In this document: piece after piece, positions 817-64,000 of the stretch | Layout of the letters: the number at the start of each line of letters is the position of its first letter | Position numbering within the stretch: position 1 is the stretch's first letter | Virus record (IMG/VR): IMGVR_UViG_3300025120_010481 | Coordinates: 1 to 64,000 of that record | Reading direction: 5' to 3' (one strand) | Origin: a virus | Length of the DNA: 64,000 nt | Notes under the pieces: model-generated | What the model was told of the DNA's origin: nothing | Databases searched by the model: none | What the model saw: the letters and a program-made list of their open reading frames with translations, nothing else | Translations under genes and position numbers: made by a program

Positions 817-2436
817 ATGGGTATTATATTTCAGCCATATTACGATAACGCACCAGATATTATAATTGGTGGCGTTAAAGATAGCACTGCTTTTAGCGGC
901 AACAAGACGGGTGTTACTGGGCCGTTTCCTAGATATTCTATTAGCAGAGAAGACTTATCATCTGGCGATGGAACCTACTTGCGTTCTAAATACAGTATTA
1001 CCGTTACTGGTACGGCAACCATCAAGTCGAACACCGCCCAAGACGCAACAGTAAAAGGTGAAAGACAAAACGCAATTCAAGGAGAGGCGATCATCGTCTC
1101 AAATCTTAACTTGCAAGAAGCTGCACAGCAAGGAAATGGTAAGCTGACAATAGCATCTTACGGTGGTCAAAACAATAAATTAATATTCTCAGATGCTAGA
1201 TTGCTGTCCGTGGAAATGCCTGAGCAAACAGAAGAGTCTCTAGGCGTGCAAAACTTAGAATACTCATTGTCTTTTGAGGCTTATTTAAACTCAAGTAACG
1301 CAAACAGTCAAACTGGTTCTGCTGATGCTGACACGGACGTGCTAAATGTTTCTTCAGCCGAAGAAAGTTGGGAATTAACAGCAAATGAGGGTGTCTTTTC
1401 TTTTAAGAATAACGATGTCTCAGACACCCCGTACAAGACTTTTACTTTAACTCATAGCTTGAACGCAGTGGGCATCAAAGTTTTCGGTGCTTCCGCGACT
1501 ACAACTGCTTGGAAGTCCGCTCAGGATTGGGTTAAATCAAGAATGTGCAAGGATGTTTCATCAGATATTGCATCAGGTGTAAACAATGCTACGAGTGCTA
1601 CGAGACCAGATACCACATTTAATCCCTTAAAAATGGGTGATGATAATTCACTTATGAACTTGGGCGATTTTAAAGGTTATAATCTCATAAGAACTTTTTC
1701 TTCAGATGTTGCTGGCGGCTCTTACAGTGTCACAGAAACTTGGCTGATTTCTGAAAAAACTCAAGCTGTTACGCACGAGGTAGACGTTAGCATAGAAAAC
1801 TCGCAAGAGGCACCAGCGGCCTCAGTTACAGTTAACGGAACAATTCAAGGACTAGAAGATGTTTCAACGAGTGTTTTGCCTATAACAACAACAGAAGGTA
1901 AGTACGCAAACGCCGTAGACGCTTTATCTGCCGTGTTAGGTAAGGCTTACACGCTTGCTAATAGTATCTACAGTACTTCTGGAATTGGTGGAACTCTAAG
2001 AACTATAGAAATTAACAAAACTATTGGGCATAATAAAGTTACTGGGACTATAACATGGAGTGTGACTTTTGATGACTTAGTGGTTGAATTTCCAAATGCT
2101 GTTCGAGAAGACATAAATGTAACTTATGAAAATGAGTATGGCACAAATCAAGTTGTGGCTATTTTGGCTATACTTGACAAGGCTGACGGCCCAATCATTC
2201 AAGATATAGGAACAACACAGGAGAGAAAAGTTAGCGTATCAATTGATTTAACTATGGAAAAAGCTTTTAGAACCACGAAGCCAAGCAAAGGGGATGACGC
2301 TCAAGAGCTAGAAGACTTGGCTAATAGCCACAAGCCAACCGCAACTACGGGCAATGTCTATCAGGAGTCTAGGTCGGAAACTTGGAATCCAAAAGCTGGT
2401 ACTTTTAATCTTAGTATAGGATGGGTGTATATATAA
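817..2436 (+). CDS. Probable tail/baseplate structural protein
   Basis: 539 aa, S/T-rich, predicted all-beta (SVTETW, ITWSVTF); TAATG-coupled to the next gene. Confidence 0.55.
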   Translation: MGIIFQPYYDNAPDIIIGGVKDSTAFSGNKTGVTGPFPRYSISREDLSSGDGTYLRSKYSITVTGTATIKSNTAQDATVKGERQNAIQGEAIIVSNLNLQEAAQQGNGKLTIASYGGQNNKLIFSDARLLSVEMPEQTEESLGVQNLEYSLSFEAYLNSSNANSQTGSADADTDVLNVSSAEESWELTANEGVFSFKNNDVSDTPYKTFTLTHSLNAVGIKVFGASATTTAWKSAQDWVKSRMCKDVSSDIASGVNNATSATRPDTTFNPLKMGDDNSLMNLGDFKGYNLIRTFSSDVAGGSYSVTETWLISEKTQAVTHEVDVSIENSQEAPAASVTVNGTIQGLEDVSTSVLPITTTEGKYANAVDALSAVLGKAYTLANSIYSTSGIGGTLRTIEINKTIGHNKVTGTITWSVTFDDLVVEFPNAVREDINVTYENEYGTNQVVAILAILDKADGPIIQDIGTTQERKVSVSIDLTMEKAFRTTKPSKGDDAQELEDLANSHKPTATTGNVYQESRSETWNPKAGTFNLSIGWVYI

Positions 2437-33096: not shown

Positions 33097-34725
33097 TCAA
33101 ATTTGTGAAACTTTATTCAATATAAGGGAGTTACCATCTCTACTGGACACTGTTCCGTTTATAAGAACCGTGTTTCCTTCAGTCAGCAAGTTTTTGTTCT
33201 TGCTATAATCCTCTGGGAAGGCAGTAACATCTAAAGACCCACTGCTGTCTTCAACTGACAAAAACGCCATAATGCTTCCGGCATTTTTACCCTTTTTTGT
33301 TTCATACTCTCTTACTGAGGCTATAGAAACAGCAATAGAAGTTTTACCAATTATAGTACTATTATGTACATCTTTGCACATATTTTTTGCTAAATTTGAT
33401 TTTATTGAACCATCTACCACACTGCAAGTTAAAGAGCATCCAATTATTCTATTTTCTAAGTTCGCTATAGTCCAAGCGTGATCCTCTGTCGAGTAAGGGG
33501 GGTTTTTCAAAGACTCGACTAAATCAAGTAATTCTGAAACCTTTTTGGGTTGAACGATTATCCTGCCCCCATCACATTCTTTTGCTATGTATTGATATTC
33601 TGACGAATCTTTGATAGAAACGTATTTATATTCTAGTGCTAATGAAATCCAAGCGTGTAAATCATCAAACGCCCCAGAGTAATGTTTGTACAAATTAGCA
33701 ATGTGCTTTTTGATTGATGCAGATAAAGAGTTCCACACCCCGTATTCATAAAGCATTTTATTTCTTTGCGTTTTATTGTTTTTGCCATTAAACGCACCAA
33801 TTGAAATCAGTGACTCAATAGTTCTTTTGCCTAGCTTTTCACCTTGTTTAACCCCGCCAAACGTAAATAAACAGTCAAGCCAAGTAAAAGAAGGAATATC
33901 TTTTGTTTTACCTAGCTTTTCTATGACCTGCACATCTACCGCAGAAACATTTTTAGCGTTAGAAATACCAAAATAAATAACACTCTTATCCTTATCCATA
34001 GTAAAGTCAGGGAACAACCTTGAAAGCGAAGGGGGATAAACTTCAATACTGTGATTCTTAGCATCCATAACAAATTCTTTTACGTCATCGCTATCTTTTG
34101 CGTGATTTAAATAAACCTCAAAAAATTTCAACGGCCTATGAGCCTTGCAGTAAGCACTTTGGTATGTATTAACAGCGTAAGCAATGCCATGAGATTTATT
34201 AAATGCGTATCTACTTGATTTTTCAATCCAAGAAAAAATTTCTTCAGCTATTTCTTCCGAGACAATGCCTTGCTCTCCAGCACCAGAGATAAACCTTTCT
34301 TTAACTTCAAGCATCAACTTGGCTTTCTTTTTACCAATCGCTTTTCTTAGGTTGTCAGCTTCTTTCAAGTCGAAGCCAGATAAAACCTTGGCTATCATCA
34401 TGGACTGTTCTTGGTAAACCAAAACACCATAAGTCTCTGAAAGGGTAGACTCCAAGGACGGATGATGGTACTTAGAGGGTTCCTTGCCTGACTTTCTGTC
34501 AACATAGGTTTGAGTCATAGACTTGCCATCCATGATAGCCTTCAAGCATCCCGGTCTAATCAAGGAAATCAAAGCCGATAACTCTGTAATACTTCTAGGT
34601 TTAACCTTTTTAGCCCAACTGGAACCAAGCTGACTTTCAAGTTGAAATACGCCCTTGGTTCTTCCTTCGCTGATTAAATCCCAAGTTAATTTGTCATCAA
34701 AATCATTAATATTAAAATCGTTCAC
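33097..34725 (-). CDS. dnaE: DNA polymerase III alpha subunit, C-terminal half (fingers/HhH/OB)
   Basis: TKGVFQLES, LIRPG, YGVLVYQEQ, ADNLRKAIGKKK, YAFNKSH, MAFLSVEDSSG; GTG start. Confidence 0.92.
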   Translation of the reverse strand: MNDFNINDFDDKLTWDLISEGRTKGVFQLESQLGSSWAKKVKPRSITELSALISLIRPGCLKAIMDGKSMTQTYVDRKSGKEPSKYHHPSLESTLSETYGVLVYQEQSMMIAKVLSGFDLKEADNLRKAIGKKKAKLMLEVKERFISGAGEQGIVSEEIAEEIFSWIEKSSRYAFNKSHGIAYAVNTYQSAYCKAHRPLKFFEVYLNHAKDSDDVKEFVMDAKNHSIEVYPPSLSRLFPDFTMDKDKSVIYFGISNAKNVSAVDVQVIEKLGKTKDIPSFTWLDCLFTFGGVKQGEKLGKRTIESLISIGAFNGKNNKTQRNKMLYEYGVWNSLSASIKKHIANLYKHYSGAFDDLHAWISLALEYKYVSIKDSSEYQYIAKECDGGRIIVQPKKVSELLDLVESLKNPPYSTEDHAWTIANLENRIIGCSLTCSVVDGSIKSNLAKNMCKDVHNSTIIGKTSIAVSIASVREYETKKGKNAGSIMAFLSVEDSSGSLDVTAFPEDYSKNKNLLTEGNTVLINGTVSSRDGNSLILNKVSQI

Positions 34726-34733
34726 GTTAACCT

Positions 34734-35435
34734 CTAAGTTATATCAAAATTTCCGTTAGCAAATGCGTTCTTGAATTGAACCTTATTGTTGTCAATAATA
34801 TTTCTTTGGAGCTTTAAAAATCTAATTAGAATATTCGCAGTATCTTTTACGTCTTGCAACGCATCATGTGCGTTTTCGTTAGGCATACCAAAGTACTCTC
34901 TTAGATAATCCATGTTATACTTATTTACTTCGGCGTGATTTTCAAACCAGCAGTAAATATGCTGCATCAAGTCGATTTTGTGAATTGGGTGGAATATTTT
35001 TTGCTCCCCATTTTTATCGCTTGTTGGGCCGTACTCTTGACAAAGCCTGTCTACGATCTTCATATCGAACCCATTAATATTGTAACCCGCAGCTATTGGT
35101 GCATACCAAGGAGTTTTCTTGAAGTTAAACTGATCGCAAAACTTAGCGAAGTTTTTCCACACAGTCTTTGGCATTGGCCCTTTAGCAAGACTAGCTCTAG
35201 TTCTTTTTGTTACTTCTAGAGCACCTTCCTCGATTGGGTCAAAACCAGCGGCAATAGCTTTATCATCATTAGTTATGCACCTCATGGTACTTTCGAAAAT
35301 GCCGTTAGGCTGAATCTTGAGCTTTCTTGCATGGATAGCTACGGCAGCAATTTGAGTGGGTTGACACTTTTCTGCGTTTCTTCCTGTGGTCTCAAAGTCA
35401 AAAACAATTATATCACGATAATTCATATTAGCCAC
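34734..35435 (-). CDS. DEDDh 3'-5' exonuclease (DnaQ/epsilon-like)
   Basis: FDFETTG (ExoI), YNINGFD (ExoII), HDALQD (ExoIII). Confidence 0.9.
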   Translation of the reverse strand: MANMNYRDIIVFDFETTGRNAEKCQPTQIAAVAIHARKLKIQPNGIFESTMRCITNDDKAIAAGFDPIEEGALEVTKRTRASLAKGPMPKTVWKNFAKFCDQFNFKKTPWYAPIAAGYNINGFDMKIVDRLCQEYGPTSDKNGEQKIFHPIHKIDLMQHIYCWFENHAEVNKYNMDYLREYFGMPNENAHDALQDVKDTANILIRFLKLQRNIIDNNKVQFKNAFANGNFDIT

Positions 35436-35658
35436 CCTTTTTTGAAATTTTTATAAATAAATCTGTAGCATCACCTAAGTCTTGGAACAATTCGTAAACC
35501 TTTTCTTTTTCACACCAAACTTGGTATTTACCCTTGGGAGTGTAATTCCCCATTATAACATCCTCCAAGTTGCATATAGATGCACCCTTTCTATTGACAA
35601 CGGAATACCCGTGATAAACAACAGACATAATGTCTTCTTTGCCGCTAATAACTTTCAT
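35428..35658 (-). CDS. Small hypothetical protein between the DnaE halves
   Basis: Fills the gap and overlaps both neighbours; alternative start at 35628. Confidence 0.6.
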   Translation of the reverse strand: MKVISGKEDIMSVVYHGYSVVNRKGASICNLEDVIMGNYTPKGKYQVWCEKEKVYELFQDLGDATDLFIKISKKGG

Positions 35659-37279
35659 CGCAAATCTCCATAATTTTAGTTAAAACATTTAAACCTAGAA
35701 TATCAAACTTAACATGCCCTTGGCTTTCTAAATCTTGCATTTCAAATGCCGCCACTGGATCACCAGATTTATTATCAATTACCGGACATATATCACTCAG
35801 TTTGTTTTTTGATATAACGACACCACAAGCGTGGGTGCTTTTACTCTTGATCGCCCCCTCTAGCTTAATCGCTAAATCAAACTCGTGAGACAAACCACCT
35901 TGAAGTTCGTCATCGCTGTTAATAAAACACCAAGACTTTAAATTGTCTGGGTTGTTTTTTAAAGCCCACATAATAACTGAGCTTTCTCCAGAAGCAGAAA
36001 TCTTGTCTGAAATTTCTTGAGTTTCTGGAATCTGATCTGTGATTTCATTCATCTCTGAGAAACCCACAGAGCCACACACACGCAGAGATTCTTTTAGTGC
36101 TGACTTTCCCTGAAGTCTACCAAAAGTAATCACCTGTGCCACTTTATCTTCCCCAAACAGGCTCTTGATGTAATCAATAACTTCATCCCTGTGAGAAGGA
36201 GGAACGTCCAAGTCAATATCTGGCAAGGAAATATTATCTTTGGTGTTTCTACCCTCGTTATAGAATCTTTCAAACAAAAGATCGTTCTTGATTGGGTCTA
36301 CATTAGTAATTCCTATAAGGTATGATACTAGCGAACCCGCAGCAGAACCCCTTCCGGGGCCAACAATCCAACCTCTTTCCCTAACGTATCTAACAATATC
36401 TTGAACGATTAAAAAATAACCTGACAGTTCAGCGTTAAATATAACACTCATTTCTGACTGTACTCTATCAAGATAAGCCCGCTTGATTTTTTCTGTGCTT
36501 AAAACATCAGGAGTCAACTTAGATGCCCAGCCTTCTCTGCATAATTGTTTAAGGTAATCATCCTGAGACATTCCGTCTGGACATTTAAATTCTGGAAGCA
36601 TGGGCTTTGCTGTGATTTCATAGTCTTCGCAGGATTCAACAATTTTAGATATTTTACTAAACTGATCTTCCTGTGTATTTGCCCCTAAGTAAAAATTACT
36701 AGAATCAAAAAACCTTTGATTGTTAGACTCTTCCCATCTTTCCTTGTTGATTGATCTCATCTTTTTAAAGTTAGTTTTCATCCCAGAAAGAATCATAACT
36801 CTGTGAGCTTCCGCATCAGTTTCGTCAACATAGTATGTTCCAGTCTCTACGATTTCATGAAAGTTGCTTTTAAACATCTTACTTAAAACGTTTGACAGAT
36901 TGTCCTTGGGTTTATCAGACTGACAGTCTCTAAAAACCACACACGCAATATTGTTTTTGGATGCCATAATCTTTAAGCTGTCTAGCTTTTTAAAATTTTC
37001 TGATTGAAAATCTGAAGTAAACTGAATCAACTCAAAATAACCCTGCTTGTTTTTAGCAAACAAAGAGAAGTCATTGAAATCGCAACCAATTATTGGCTTG
37101 ATTCCGTTGTCCTTGCAAGCCTTGTGAAAAGCTGGCACGCCCGACACGTTCTCGATATCGTTAATTGCACATGCTTGATAGCCATTTTCCTTGCATCTCT
37201 TTGCAATATTGTCGCATTGACAAAATCCTTTCTGGATGCTGTAGTCAGTTTTGACATTTAGTGGAGTATATTCGCTCAT
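35645..37279 (-). CDS. dnaE: DNA polymerase III alpha subunit, N-terminal half (degenerate PHP + palm)
   Basis: IKPIIG, GPGRGSAAGSLVSYLIGIT, LLFERF, PDIDLD, HACGVVI, KFDILGL. Confidence 0.92.
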   Translation of the reverse strand: MSEYTPLNVKTDYSIQKGFCQCDNIAKRCKENGYQACAINDIENVSGVPAFHKACKDNGIKPIIGCDFNDFSLFAKNKQGYFELIQFTSDFQSENFKKLDSLKIMASKNNIACVVFRDCQSDKPKDNLSNVLSKMFKSNFHEIVETGTYYVDETDAEAHRVMILSGMKTNFKKMRSINKERWEESNNQRFFDSSNFYLGANTQEDQFSKISKIVESCEDYEITAKPMLPEFKCPDGMSQDDYLKQLCREGWASKLTPDVLSTEKIKRAYLDRVQSEMSVIFNAELSGYFLIVQDIVRYVRERGWIVGPGRGSAAGSLVSYLIGITNVDPIKNDLLFERFYNEGRNTKDNISLPDIDLDVPPSHRDEVIDYIKSLFGEDKVAQVITFGRLQGKSALKESLRVCGSVGFSEMNEITDQIPETQEISDKISASGESSVIMWALKNNPDNLKSWCFINSDDELQGGLSHEFDLAIKLEGAIKSKSTHACGVVISKNKLSDICPVIDNKSGDPVAAFEMQDLESQGHVKFDILGLNVLTKIMEICDESY

Positions 37280-61674: not shown

Positions 61675-62889
61675 TTATACAAACAACTCTTTTATAATTT
61701 TTCCTGAGTTTGCTATCTTCATAGGTCGCCCACCGTTGCTTGTATAAGTGGTCTCCAACGAAATGCCAAGAGCATTACAAATCGACACCATTACATCTTC
61801 CGAAGAGTGGCTTTCTGTTTCTACTTTTGTTCCGTCTTCGTTTGTTGAACCTACAGATATACCACCATTCATACCAGCCCCACCCACAACCACACTCCAG
61901 CTTCTTGCCCAGTGGTCTCGTCCGGCGTTCTGGTTGATTTGTGGTGTTCTACTAAACTCTCCCATCCATATGATAGCCGTGTCGTCAAGCAGTCCTCGCT
62001 GCTCTAGGTCTTCTATTAACGCACTCATGCCTTGGTCTAGCATGGGTAACTTTGTGTCTTTTAATGTTGGAAAAATATTCTGATGGTTGTCCCAGCCGTT
62101 TAGCCCGACCTCGATAAATGGAACGCCAACCTCAACAAGCCTTCTAGCCATTAGACATCCCTTGCCAAAGCTGTTGTCCCCGTATCGTTCCTTAACGGAA
62201 TCTGGCTCTACGTCCACCTTCATTGCGTCCATCTCACTACTGGTCAAAACATCAAATGTTTTTCGCAGTATCTTTTGATGTTCTTTAGCGAGAGACCCTC
62301 TATTGTTTTTTATGAAGTTGTTTTCCATTAAATGTAGGGCTTGTGCCCTTTGACGGAATCTATCATCTATTTTTAAGTCTAGATTTCTAATTCTACCATC
62401 GCTGTTTACCACGAACGGAGAATATTCAGCACCTAAAAATCCACCTCCAGCACTTGGCCCATTAACTGACACAAACTGAGGTATCAAAAGGTCTTCTCTC
62501 TCTAGCTCTTTAGAAAGAATAGCTCCGTAACTTGGGTGAACCATATTTGGATTAGGCACATAGCCTGTGTGCATGTAGTAACGACCCCGCATGTGGTCAG
62601 CTTCACGGGTACTCATGCTTCGCACAATAGCCATGTTGTGCATCTGCTTTGCCATTAGCGGCATATGCTCACAAATTTCTACATCTCCGGTTGTACTTAT
62701 GGGCTTGAATGGGCCACCAGTTGGTGCGTCTGGTTTTAAGTCCCATATGTCCATCGTTGACGGGCCACCTCCCATCCAGAGAAGTATGGCCGATTTGCCC
62801 TTTTTCTTTAATTCCTTCTCGTTAGCCTTGAGGGTTTGCGTTAAAGCGGCAAGCCCAGCTAGTGATGATAAAAACTGTCTTCTTTTCAT
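61675..62889 (-). CDS. DUF1501 family protein with Tat signal
   Basis: RRQFL; ILLWMGGGPS..D.WDLKP; GCLMARRLVE.GV; GWDNH; GEFSRTP; GRDHW. Confidence 0.92.
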   Translation of the reverse strand: MKRRQFLSSLAGLAALTQTLKANEKELKKKGKSAILLWMGGGPSTMDIWDLKPDAPTGGPFKPISTTGDVEICEHMPLMAKQMHNMAIVRSMSTREADHMRGRYYMHTGYVPNPNMVHPSYGAILSKELEREDLLIPQFVSVNGPSAGGGFLGAEYSPFVVNSDGRIRNLDLKIDDRFRQRAQALHLMENNFIKNNRGSLAKEHQKILRKTFDVLTSSEMDAMKVDVEPDSVKERYGDNSFGKGCLMARRLVEVGVPFIEVGLNGWDNHQNIFPTLKDTKLPMLDQGMSALIEDLEQRGLLDDTAIIWMGEFSRTPQINQNAGRDHWARSWSVVVGGAGMNGGISVGSTNEDGTKVETESHSSEDVMVSICNALGISLETTYTSNGGRPMKIANSGKIIKELFV

Positions 62890-62907
62890 TTTTCTTGTAT
62901 CCTTATC
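62832..62907. repeat. Direct repeat copy 1 (RBS + Tat-leader codons)
   Basis: 70/76 nt identical to 63581-63656. Confidence 0.92.
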
Positions 62908-62942
62908 CTGAATATTTTTGCTGTTGTTTTACTTTTACCGTG

Positions 62943-63638
62943 TTACTTGCGATTGTCAGGGTAGCGAAGAAACATGACTAAATCGTCACCGCACTCTGAA
63001 AGAGTAAGTTCACTGACTTCATTCTTTCCCGGTTTCATGTTCGCGATGTCATCGGGAGTTTCAATCTCCCCATTTGGCCCCGCTGAAACCACGCGAATGA
63101 ATTTGGATTCTGTTTGATTGATGATTCCGTCTTGGTCAAAATCGACCTGTAACTCAAGTTCATTTCCCCAACCATCCACGATTGTTGGTTCACCAGTTTC
63201 GTTTCGCCCCGTCGCACGCACATAGGGGCCATGCCAGCCAATTTTGTTGACCGGATCGTAGTTTTTAAGTTCGGGGGCGGCTTCTTCCATGTGGGCTGGT
63301 GCATCCTCTTTGAGGAGATCGTTGATTTCTCTTGGAAGAGCATTTGTCTTGTGTGACAGTGACTCAATAACACCGTCTTCCCCCGCCATCGCTTCACGAA
63401 CGGTATTCAGCGTAGCCTGCGTAGCAATTTCGACAGGGCTGTTGGACTCACCAGAAGGCGAGGTGATATCAATATTGTTAAACGTGGTGAATATGAGGGC
63501 GGTCGCGATTAAAATCACCAATACGACTAATAGTTCGAGGAGCGTCAAACCACGTTGATTTAAGTGATGACGCGATCCACGGGTTTGAGTTAAAGCAGCA
63601 AGTCCAGATAGCGATGATAAAAACTGTCTTCTTTTCAT
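62943..63638 (-). CDS. Chimeric prepilin/pseudopilin (type II secretion G-like) protein with a borrowed Tat leader
   Basis: RG|LTLLELLVVLVIL class III signal, GWHGPY, DGWGNE, VSAGPNG, DDLV; visibly GC-richer than its flanks. Confidence 0.8.
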   Translation of the reverse strand: MKRRQFLSSLSGLAALTQTRGSRHHLNQRGLTLLELLVVLVILIATALIFTTFNNIDITSPSGESNSPVEIATQATLNTVREAMAGEDGVIESLSHKTNALPREINDLLKEDAPAHMEEAAPELKNYDPVNKIGWHGPYVRATGRNETGEPTIVDGWGNELELQVDFDQDGIINQTESKFIRVVSAGPNGEIETPDDIANMKPGKNEVSELTLSECGDDLVMFLRYPDNRK

Positions 63639-63656
63639 TTTTCGTGTATCCTTATC
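63581..63656. repeat. Direct repeat copy 2 (RBS + Tat-leader codons)
   Basis: 70/76 nt identical to 62832-62907. Confidence 0.92.
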
Positions 63657-63692
63657 TTTATATTCCTGCTTATTTTTTATTTTGTAAATCCG

Positions 63693-63721
63693 TTAGCGTG
63701 TCAAACTGACACAATTACCAA
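63693..63721 (-). promoter_or_regulatory. Candidate bacterial-type SECIS hairpin
   Basis: After the UGA: lower stem UUGGU/GCUAA, upper stem GUGUC/GACAC, loop AGUUU with G at +21. Confidence 0.5.
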
Positions 63722-64000
63722 GCTCGTCACGACCAATATCTGGCTTTCCATTTAGGCCCCGGAGTTTCGCATTTATGCCTAGCTCTAAATGACTTTCTCC
63801 TAGCTGGATCAGACTTCTTGATTCTCATATTTGGATCGCCAAAGTTAACCTTTACTACGTTACCCTTTTCGTTTTTAACATAAACAGATCGTTTTTTCGG
63901 GCCATCTGGTGTTAGAAACGGTTTCCCTAGTTTAACTTTTCTACCTTGATATTCTGCTGCTCTTACGGGAACCAAGTTCCTGCCATCCTTTGTGTAAATA
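63715..64000 (-). CDS. Basic large-phage protein (RRKSFRARH..C..ARYWS motif), 5'-partial; possible Sec readthrough of UGA at 63727-63729
   Basis: Frame is open to the window end; TGG TCG TGA CGA GCT TGG TAA. Without readthrough the CDS ends at 63727. Confidence 0.7.

Follow-up and report, generated by a model that had tools for sequence, protein, structure and literature searches.

A candidate phage-encoded selenoprotein with a SECIS-like hairpin of bacterial type at and behind its stop codon

Does an in-frame UGA close to the end of a viral gene terminate translation, or is it read as selenocysteine (Sec)? The question is raised by IMG/VR virus record IMGVR_UViG_3300025120_010481, a contig of 79,203 bases that is about 51% complete. 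The window analysed here is the whole stretch of 64,000 nucleotides (nt) at positions 1–64,000 of that record. The gene concerned lies on the minus strand, as do all of its elements described below. It is a 418-codon open reading frame (ORF) at 63730–64983 of the record, and it extends past the window end at 64000. According to the ORF listing, its 3' part within the window (63730–64000) encodes a basic, conserved C-terminal module that reads ...FRARHKCETPGPKWKARYWS, followed by TGA-CGA-GCT-TGG-TAA. The coding sequence ahead of the UGA ends in KARYWS, with the Ser codon at 63732–63730. The UGA itself is codon 419 (63727–63729) and stands in the context UGA-C. Codons CGA GCT TGG (Arg-Ala-Trp) follow at 63718–63726, and a TAA at 63715–63717.

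Judged from comparative sequence analysis, the UGA at 63729–63727 is most probably a selenocysteine codon, decoded by SelB and tRNA-Sec of the host. The reading is favoured because the UGA pairs with a conserved Cys, recurs in many genomes and in two clades, and is followed by conserved codons and by a covarying hairpin of consensus type that the Cys forms lack. It is also likely, in a broader sense, that marine phages make selenoproteins of their own. A module known to date from viruses only would then have swapped its C-terminal Cys for Sec at least twice, each time with a bacterial selenocysteine insertion sequence (SECIS) lying partly or wholly beyond the stop codon.

The C-terminal cysteine and its UGA alleles

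The C-terminal 90 residues of the ORF match phrog_7595 (E = 6.2e-11, profile positions 6–91 of 96), and scans of the module against Pfam and NCBIfam gave no match. The family is very large. Among 5.8 billion proteins searched, over 8000 clusters (90% identity) proved to be related to it, and an exhaustive HMMER search gave 3592 clusters at 50% identity. Among the best 120 of the more than 8000 homologous clusters, the column of the UGA is Cys in 119, directly after Y-W-S. Nearly all of these 120 end in C-[R/K]-x-W, with 37 cases of CRAW and 36 of CKAW. In DNA, the codon is TGT or TGC in all 271 distinct non-TGA alleles that were fetched. Comparison within the window's clade shows that the post-UGA codons spell the same [R/K]-x-W ending. 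A UGA aligned to Cys, with conservation continuing 3' of it, is the pattern of a Sec/Cys pair. An earlier note, made from the letters of the window alone, had described an ORF end RYWS-TGA-CGA-GCT-TGG-TAA with a hairpin behind it, and both are present as described on the minus strand. The homologue ending ARYWS-C-(R/K)-x-W, which the note had given for the family, is borne out by the alignment.

A second Cys belongs to the same module. Its TGC codon (63769–63771; Cys405, in the motif R-H-x-C) lies 14 residues ahead of the UGA, in a column that is invariant in the alignment, and Cys405 is a candidate partner for the selenocysteine.

Members of the family occur in cultured phages, to whose proteins the window's is 45–72% identical. 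The phrog_7595 module with K-A-R-Y-W-S-C-[R/K]-x-W in Pelagibacter and Roseobacter phages and in Phage C48C1 is the same module as the window's. The matched members in cultured phages are Cys forms or were compared as proteins, whereas the window's clade has UGA in place of the last Cys, together with the hairpin. An atlas search with the truncated module found only viral ‘hypothetical protein’ clusters, 94–100% viruses, one of which has DUF5754 in 25% of its members. The viral assignment of the record comes from the IMG/VR classification and from this gene family; a PHROG search of eight large ORFs of the record gave no match to a phage hallmark. The module stands nearly always at the extreme C-terminus of the proteins that carry it, which have about 85 to nearly 900 residues and a wide variety of N-terminal parts. 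The middle of the window's protein has a weak match to DUF5824 (24.8 bits). Homologues are also found in Nitrosopumilaceae spindle-shaped viruses, which are archaeal viruses. An AlphaFold model of a Cys homologue (P0007) has a mean predicted local distance difference test (pLDDT) score of 63, falling below 50 over the two-Cys region. Foldseek with this model against the PDB gave no match at E up to 0.001, nor did a profile search of PDB sequences match the module. Given the low confidence over the Cys region and the lack of a PDB match, no fold, function or Cys–Cys distance is assigned.

Are UGA alleles confined to one assembly? A degenerate DNA pattern for K-A-[R/N]-Y-W-S-TGA-[R/K]-x-W was run against IMG/VR, JGI/TARA metagenome contigs and 185,579 reference bacterial genomes. 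Besides this record, 23 contigs carry true family members with UGA, six in IMG/VR and 17 among the JGI/TARA metagenome contigs. The 185,579 bacterial genomes held no UGA allele; three pattern matches there were all false. The site (63683–63763) is also bridged by Logan contigs from four sequencing runs, each of a different study and one of them of an RNA-seq library. These contigs have variant letters upstream, and none at the TGA or within the hairpin.

In a codon tree of 298 distinct sequences, UGA alleles occupy three separate positions among the Cys forms, which gives three independent origins: clade 1, which includes the window (13 distinct sequences, support 0.90), clade 2 (three distinct sequences, support 0.96) and a singleton, L212. 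Proteins of clade 1 have 212–418 residues and differing N-terminal modules. Over their last 74 codons, up to 69 of 222 nucleotides (31%) and 15 of 74 residues differ, and third-codon positions are variable at 67 of the 74. From TGA to TAA just one base in 15 varies among the 13 distinct members, a synonymous GCT/GCA change. The 25 bases 3' of the hairpin are only 37% identical. The block is therefore an island of constraint, between upstream synonymous sites near saturation and downstream sequence that is free to change. Since the TGA is kept across so deep a divergence, sequence comparison argues firmly that it is neither an error nor a recent nonsense change. The simple nonsense mutation or sequencing error that the earlier note had offered as its alternative is excluded by this depth of divergence. 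The note had also proposed looking for other genomes with TGA and a covarying hairpin, and for read support at the codon. Two diverged clades in about 20 assemblies supply the former, and the contigs of the four runs show no other letter at either element.

Control scans, for the first conserved Cys codon in IMG/VR and for the Trp two codons upstream of the UGA, found no TGA allele at either codon. Nonsense alleles are therefore not generally tolerated in this neighbourhood. Recoding of TGA throughout the genome was considered as a separate matter and rejected: TGA terminates 27 of the 94 ORFs of the record, and reading it as sense lengthens no genes. No second gene with a UGA and a hairpin was found in this record or in related loci.

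The hairpin 3' of the UGA

In the window, the sequence GUGUC-AGUUU-GACAC begins two bases beyond the TAA. It would fold into an upper stem-loop (63698–63712) with a stem of five base pairs (bp), GUGUC at 63712–63708 and GACAC at 63702–63698, closing the loop AGUUU at 63707–63703. The stem starts 14 nt beyond the UGA; if the U of UGA is numbered 1, the loop G is at +24 and the U next to it at +25. RNAfold sees this loop as a GUU triloop on 7 bp, and for all members of clade 1 it predicts this upper hairpin, at +17 to +33. The predicted SECIS-like hairpin as a whole (63689–63729), most of which is 3' of the TAA, is made up of the UGA, a weak lower pairing that involves the coding segment, an internal loop, and the upper stem-loop. 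In the lower pairing, the conserved coding segment CGAGCUUGGUAA joins a different, non-conserved 3' sequence in each lineage. The hairpin drawn in the earlier note thus stands in part. Its upper stem-loop is general, whereas its lower stem UUGGU/GCUAA with an AAUU bulge is specific to a sub-lineage, and relatives use other 3' partners.

Comparison of relatives indicates that this hairpin is more than chance. Most members of clade 1 have the stem GUGUC/GACAC, while L211 and L215 have GUAUC/GAUAC and L220 has GCGUC/GACGC. Two pairs thus show compensatory double changes, U-A to C-G and G-C to A-U. The 5-bp helix is 98% paired over 10 distinct rows, and seven of 500 column shuffles scored as high. 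Across the 13 distinct sequences the loop is invariant, save for a shortening by one base to AGUU in one sub-lineage.

The hairpin also tracks the UGA. All 289 distinct alleles were screened by one fixed rule: a stem of 5 bp or more that starts at +13 to +24, two or more G-C pairs, and G as the first or second loop base. The rule was passed by 16 of the 18 UGA alleles and by four of the 271 with Cys (Fisher 1e-20; owing to their relatedness, the alleles represent about three independent events). Across the first 191 distinct alleles fetched, the 48 nt behind the codon have a mean folding energy of -9.9 kcal/mol where the codon is UGA (n = 17) and of -4.6 kcal/mol where it is Cys (n = 174). The Cys relatives closest to the window's clade, at 91% identity over 74 residues, are without the hairpin and run straight into the next gene; the earlier note had named close Cys relatives with the same hairpin, in the absence of other TGA alleles, as evidence against selenocysteine. 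All of the computational checks proposed in the note thus favour selenocysteine. When IMG/VR was scanned for the tail and hairpin of clade 1 with TGN allowed at the codon, every allele recovered was TGA.

Could the hairpin be a transcription terminator? An intrinsic terminator has a GC-rich stem followed directly by a T-run, a combination that this hairpin lacks. A scan of 63400–64000 found no T-run and no terminator-like site, in agreement with the earlier note, which had observed the lack of a U-tract. Many relatives carry a separate terminator, a GC stem with a T-run, 10–25 nt beyond the hairpin, and this too argues that the small hairpin is not itself one.

How well does the element agree with known bacterial SECIS elements? 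It agrees with their published consensus on all four counts. This consensus has a loop of 3–9 nt, a stem of 4–16 bp, a spacing of 16–37 nt between UGA and loop and a minimum free energy (MFE) of -7.5 kcal/mol or lower (PMC13188914). A G stands at loop position 1 or 2, and the loop is mostly of the form N1-G-[G/U]-N-N2, with N1 and N2 pairing (PMC13188914). The window's 5-nt AGUUU on 5 bp falls within these sizes. The loop is A-G-U-U-U in clade 1 and A-G-G-U-U in clade 2, so that N1/N2 is A/U in both. In all members the spacing from UGA to loop is 18–20 nt, and in the window 19 nt, with the stem starting at +17 or +18. Over 47 nt the MFE is -8.3 kcal/mol for the window, -7.6 for L007 and -8.1 to -13.4 for the others; taken singly, these values are no better than those of shuffled sequence.

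Clade 2 offers a second, differently built case. Its members are stand-alone proteins of 83 + 13–14 residues on contigs of 32–34% G+C, and L233 and L007 differ at 29 of 74 upstream residues. The hairpin, GUC[A/G]GAA-GGU-UUCUGAC, lies within the post-UGA codons, at the same distance from the UGA as in clade 1 (spacing 19 nt; MFE -7.6 to -11.1 kcal/mol). It can be drawn as a GGU triloop on 7 bp, or as A-G-G-U-U on 6 bp with the closing A-U opened. One A-U pair of its stem has become G-U. Here the frame stays open for 13–14 codons after the UGA, R-[M/L]-W-[A/S]-G-[Q/R]-K-V-S-D-[I/M]-[L/I]-..., and the peptide resembles the C-[K/R]-F-W-[Q/E]-S-[R/S]-K-[S/T]-V-[T/S]-D-L-L of sister Cys forms. The post-UGA Arg is AGG in one sequence and CGT in the other; W, K, V, S and D are kept, while M/L varies. 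This pattern argues that the tail is under selection at the protein level, although no ribosome would reach its codons if the UGA were a true stop.

Cys forms with a C-terminal extension (L159, L163, L165, L168, L171–L178, L048, L092, L118, L119) have small hairpins about +21 to +40 nt after the Cys codon. They form in the coding sequence of K-S-V-T-[K/N/D]-..., and their arms covary at synonymous sites (for example GTTAC/GTAAC, GTGAC/GTCAC, TCAG/CTGA versus TCTG/CAGA). Extension hairpins of at least 5 bp occur in 47%, against 34 ± 6% in synonymous-codon shuffles, a weak enrichment. Such a hairpin could be the pre-existing source of the clade 2 SECIS, or could be due to chance.

Selenocysteine and other readings of the UGA

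The proposed course of events is simple. The mRNA made in infection would fold a bacterial-type SECIS hairpin, its stem 14 nt past the UGA and its loop A-G-U-U-U. Host SelB with Sec-tRNA(Sec) would bind the loop and bring selenocysteine to the ribosome paused at the UGA. Translation would then add Arg-Ala-Trp and end at the TAA, which is invariant in clade 1 and is the proposed true stop. The product would have 422 residues, with U419 replacing the near-invariant C-terminal Cys. SelB binding to the hairpin, selenium incorporation and a Sec-competent host are thus predictions of the model. U419 may be redox-active, possibly forming a selenylsulfide with Cys405 of R-H-x-C (RHKC in this protein). 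A selenium-dependent C-terminal switch, which the earlier note had offered as a second idea, is another possibility.

Several observations weigh against selenocysteine, and some of them would suit a UGA that is a genuine stop. In that case the protein would lack its last four residues in clade 1, or 14–15 in clade 2, and the conserved block would be an RNA element with some other role, for instance in protecting the 3' end, as a site for RNase or in regulating the next gene. The hairpins are small and thermodynamically unexceptional. Single ones fold no better than shuffled sequence (z -0.2 to -2.7; the window's, at -8.3 kcal/mol, has z = -0.2), and in L224, L226 and L228 the stem GCGUC/GACAC contains a C-A mismatch. 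Just three post-UGA codons exist in clade 1 and they are kept at the nucleotide level, even at synonymous sites, as a constraint on the RNA alone would also predict. L212, a lone UGA allele, has no SECIS-like hairpin. Its gene end (2375–2404, minus strand) reads ...KARYWS-TGA-AGA-AAG-TGG-TAA and is followed immediately by the next gene. Probably this allele is a simple nonsense variant or stems from an error of assembly, and it illustrates that plain truncations do occur occasionally. A permissive Rfam scan of 63560–63860 (E up to 10; RF00031, RF01988–RF01991) returned no SECIS family and only a chance snoRNA match. This miss carries little weight, since bacterial SECIS elements are, according to a preprint, poorly represented in Rfam. 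A tRNA-Sec search of this record and four related ones, all fragments that are 8–51% complete, gave none above the cut-off and returned only tRNA-Asn and tRNA-Thr below it. The clues to the host conflict as well, an alphaproteobacterial-type transfer-messenger RNA (tmRNA) standing against a DUF1501 gene typical of Planctomycetes. Even so, a genuine stop is improbable. Losing a Cys that 119 of the 120 best homologues and all 271 Cys alleles retain should be costly, and neighbouring codons show no nonsense alleles. Two independent origins arrived at the same distance from UGA to loop and the same N1-G-[G/U]-N-N2 loop. The clade 2 tail is conserved as protein, with its Arg as AGG or CGT, in the manner of the tails of Cys relatives. 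The separate terminator that follows the hairpin in relatives also speaks against this reading.

A further possibility is Sec-independent read-through, in which a near-cognate tRNA for Trp or Cys would decode a leaky UGA-C, perhaps aided by the hairpin, and a mixture of short and full-length protein would result, for which the read-through of the Q-beta coat gene is the model. UGA-C is a weak termination context in E. coli. It is the context in clade 1 and in L233, and the post-UGA codons are conserved, as such a reading would have it. L007 and L230, however, have UGA-A. The homologous column is Cys, the hallmark of Sec, and the loop motif and its spacing fit the SelB-type consensus. No bacterial read-through signal is known to need a G-U loop at a fixed distance. 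Read-through of this kind is accordingly rated very improbable. An error of sequencing or assembly, or a very recent inactivating mutation that made a pseudogene, has a negligible chance. The change from TGY to TGA is a single base and the record is a metagenome assembly, but the same TGA recurs in about 20 independent marine assemblies, is without variants in contigs of four runs from four studies, and persists through synonymous divergence near saturation. Selenocysteine remains the preferred reading.

Which host might decode it? A circularly permuted tmRNA of alphaproteobacterial type lies beyond the window, at 68180–68414 of the record, minus strand (L237 4180–4414; RF04321, 97 bits; RF01849 (alpha_tmRNA), 56 bits). 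It adjoins tRNA-Thr and tRNA-Asn, and its ARAGORN tag is ANASFAMAA. A similar tmRNA is found on the UGA-clade contig L215 (3790–4272; tag AEPSFAMAA). As a host clue it makes Alphaproteobacteria possible. In blastn comparisons with cultured phages no close relative emerged; matches to the contigs of clades 1 and 2 were confined to ribonucleotide reductase genes and to the module. According to a preprint, 135 Pelagibacter genomes are without selC, while Actinomarina has the full Sec machinery. For this reason Pelagibacter should not be the host of the UGA clades, although Cys forms occur in pelagiphages.

Other genes of the record were noted in passing. The next gene downstream (62943–63638, minus strand) encodes a prepilin-type protein with an N_methyl motif. 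Its first 19 or so codons (MKRRQFLSSL...) are a copy of the Tat-like leader of the neighbouring DUF1501 gene (61675–62889, minus strand), and a 103-nt repeat of 86% identity is present (62832–63690). DnaE, the alpha subunit of DNA polymerase III, is encoded in two ORFs within 33097–37279 (minus strand), with PHP and NTPase parts at 35645–37279 and finger and OB parts at 33097–34725. A 233-codon ORF (34734–35435) lies between them.

Significance and relation to known systems

Full-text literature searches found no phage-encoded selenoprotein. Phages and viruses go unmentioned in a 2026 review that inventories the selenoproteins of prokaryotes (PMC13188914), and a marine trace-element survey reports few or no viral sequences in selenoprotein families. 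If the proposal is right, it has consequences for annotation and for biology. Gene callers would shorten or miss such phage genes. The alternation of Sec and Cys would be the first functional handle on a very large phage protein family, because replacement of Cys by Sec is typically seen at catalytic redox-active cysteines (PMC1794560). The C-terminal Cys would then be redox-active or catalytic across the whole family, some 3600 clusters. Since the host must decode Sec, a UGA allele would mark phages of Sec-decoding hosts and provide a clue to host range, excluding Pelagibacter, for example. Phage fitness would be tied to the supply of selenium, whose availability might be a factor in marine phage–host dynamics. 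A compact, natural bacterial SECIS placed 3' of the gene would also be of interest for the engineering of C-terminal Sec tags.

Apart from cells, a few animal viruses are known to make use of selenocysteine insertion. The closest parallels are the SECIS elements of bacterial genes bound by SelB, such as E. coli fdhF (Sec140). The window's family resembles them in having UGA at a Cys column, a stem-loop 3' of it, compensatory changes in the stem and a UGA-C context. The loop starts 19–20 nt after the UGA, as in bacterial elements, with G at +23 or +24 and U one or two bases later. In the fdhF SECIS the bases that contact SelB are G23 and U24, almost exactly as far from the UGA as G24 and U25 are in the window. 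Unlike the bacterial genes, the window's is carried by a phage rather than a cell, and its binding by SelB is predicted. In contrast to elements of the fdhF type, the upper stem-loop of clade 1 lies in the 3' untranslated region (UTR), beyond the true stop, and its upper stem has 5–7 bp and no bulged U. The position beyond the stop follows from that of the proposed Sec, the fourth residue from the end.

Bacteria also offer a parallel for the terminal position. SaoC (NF040734) is a bacterial Cys-Sec-COOH protein with Sec at its extreme C-terminus (PMC13188914). The window's protein resembles SaoC, and engineered thioredoxin reductase, in that its proposed Sec lies a few residues from the C-terminus. 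In such proteins the SECIS must overlap or follow the stop codon and still keep its distance from the UGA. That this can work is known from E. coli, in which a SECIS behind the stop codon of engineered thioredoxin reductase is functional if the spacing is kept. Arner et al. in 1999 reportedly produced the mammalian enzyme in E. coli in this way, with the fdhF SECIS placed after UGA-Gly-stop. Unlike these proteins, the window's family is of phage origin and unrelated, with no sequence similarity to them (the NCBIfam scan was empty).

Among viruses, known selenoproteins are the glutathione peroxidase homologues of molluscum contagiosum virus and fowlpox virus. They share with the present case a virus-encoded UGA-Sec protein that relies on the Sec machinery of the host, both of which are predicted here. 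Their SECIS elements are of the eukaryotic kind and sit in long 3' UTRs, and the genes themselves were captured from hosts and have known functions. The window's system, in contrast, has an element of bacterial type and a gene family that is apparently viral only (atlas clusters 94–100% viruses). Most likely, then, the mechanism is the known bacterial one, and what is new is the phage carrier, the protein family, the recurrent conversion of Cys to Sec and a SECIS largely behind the stop codon.

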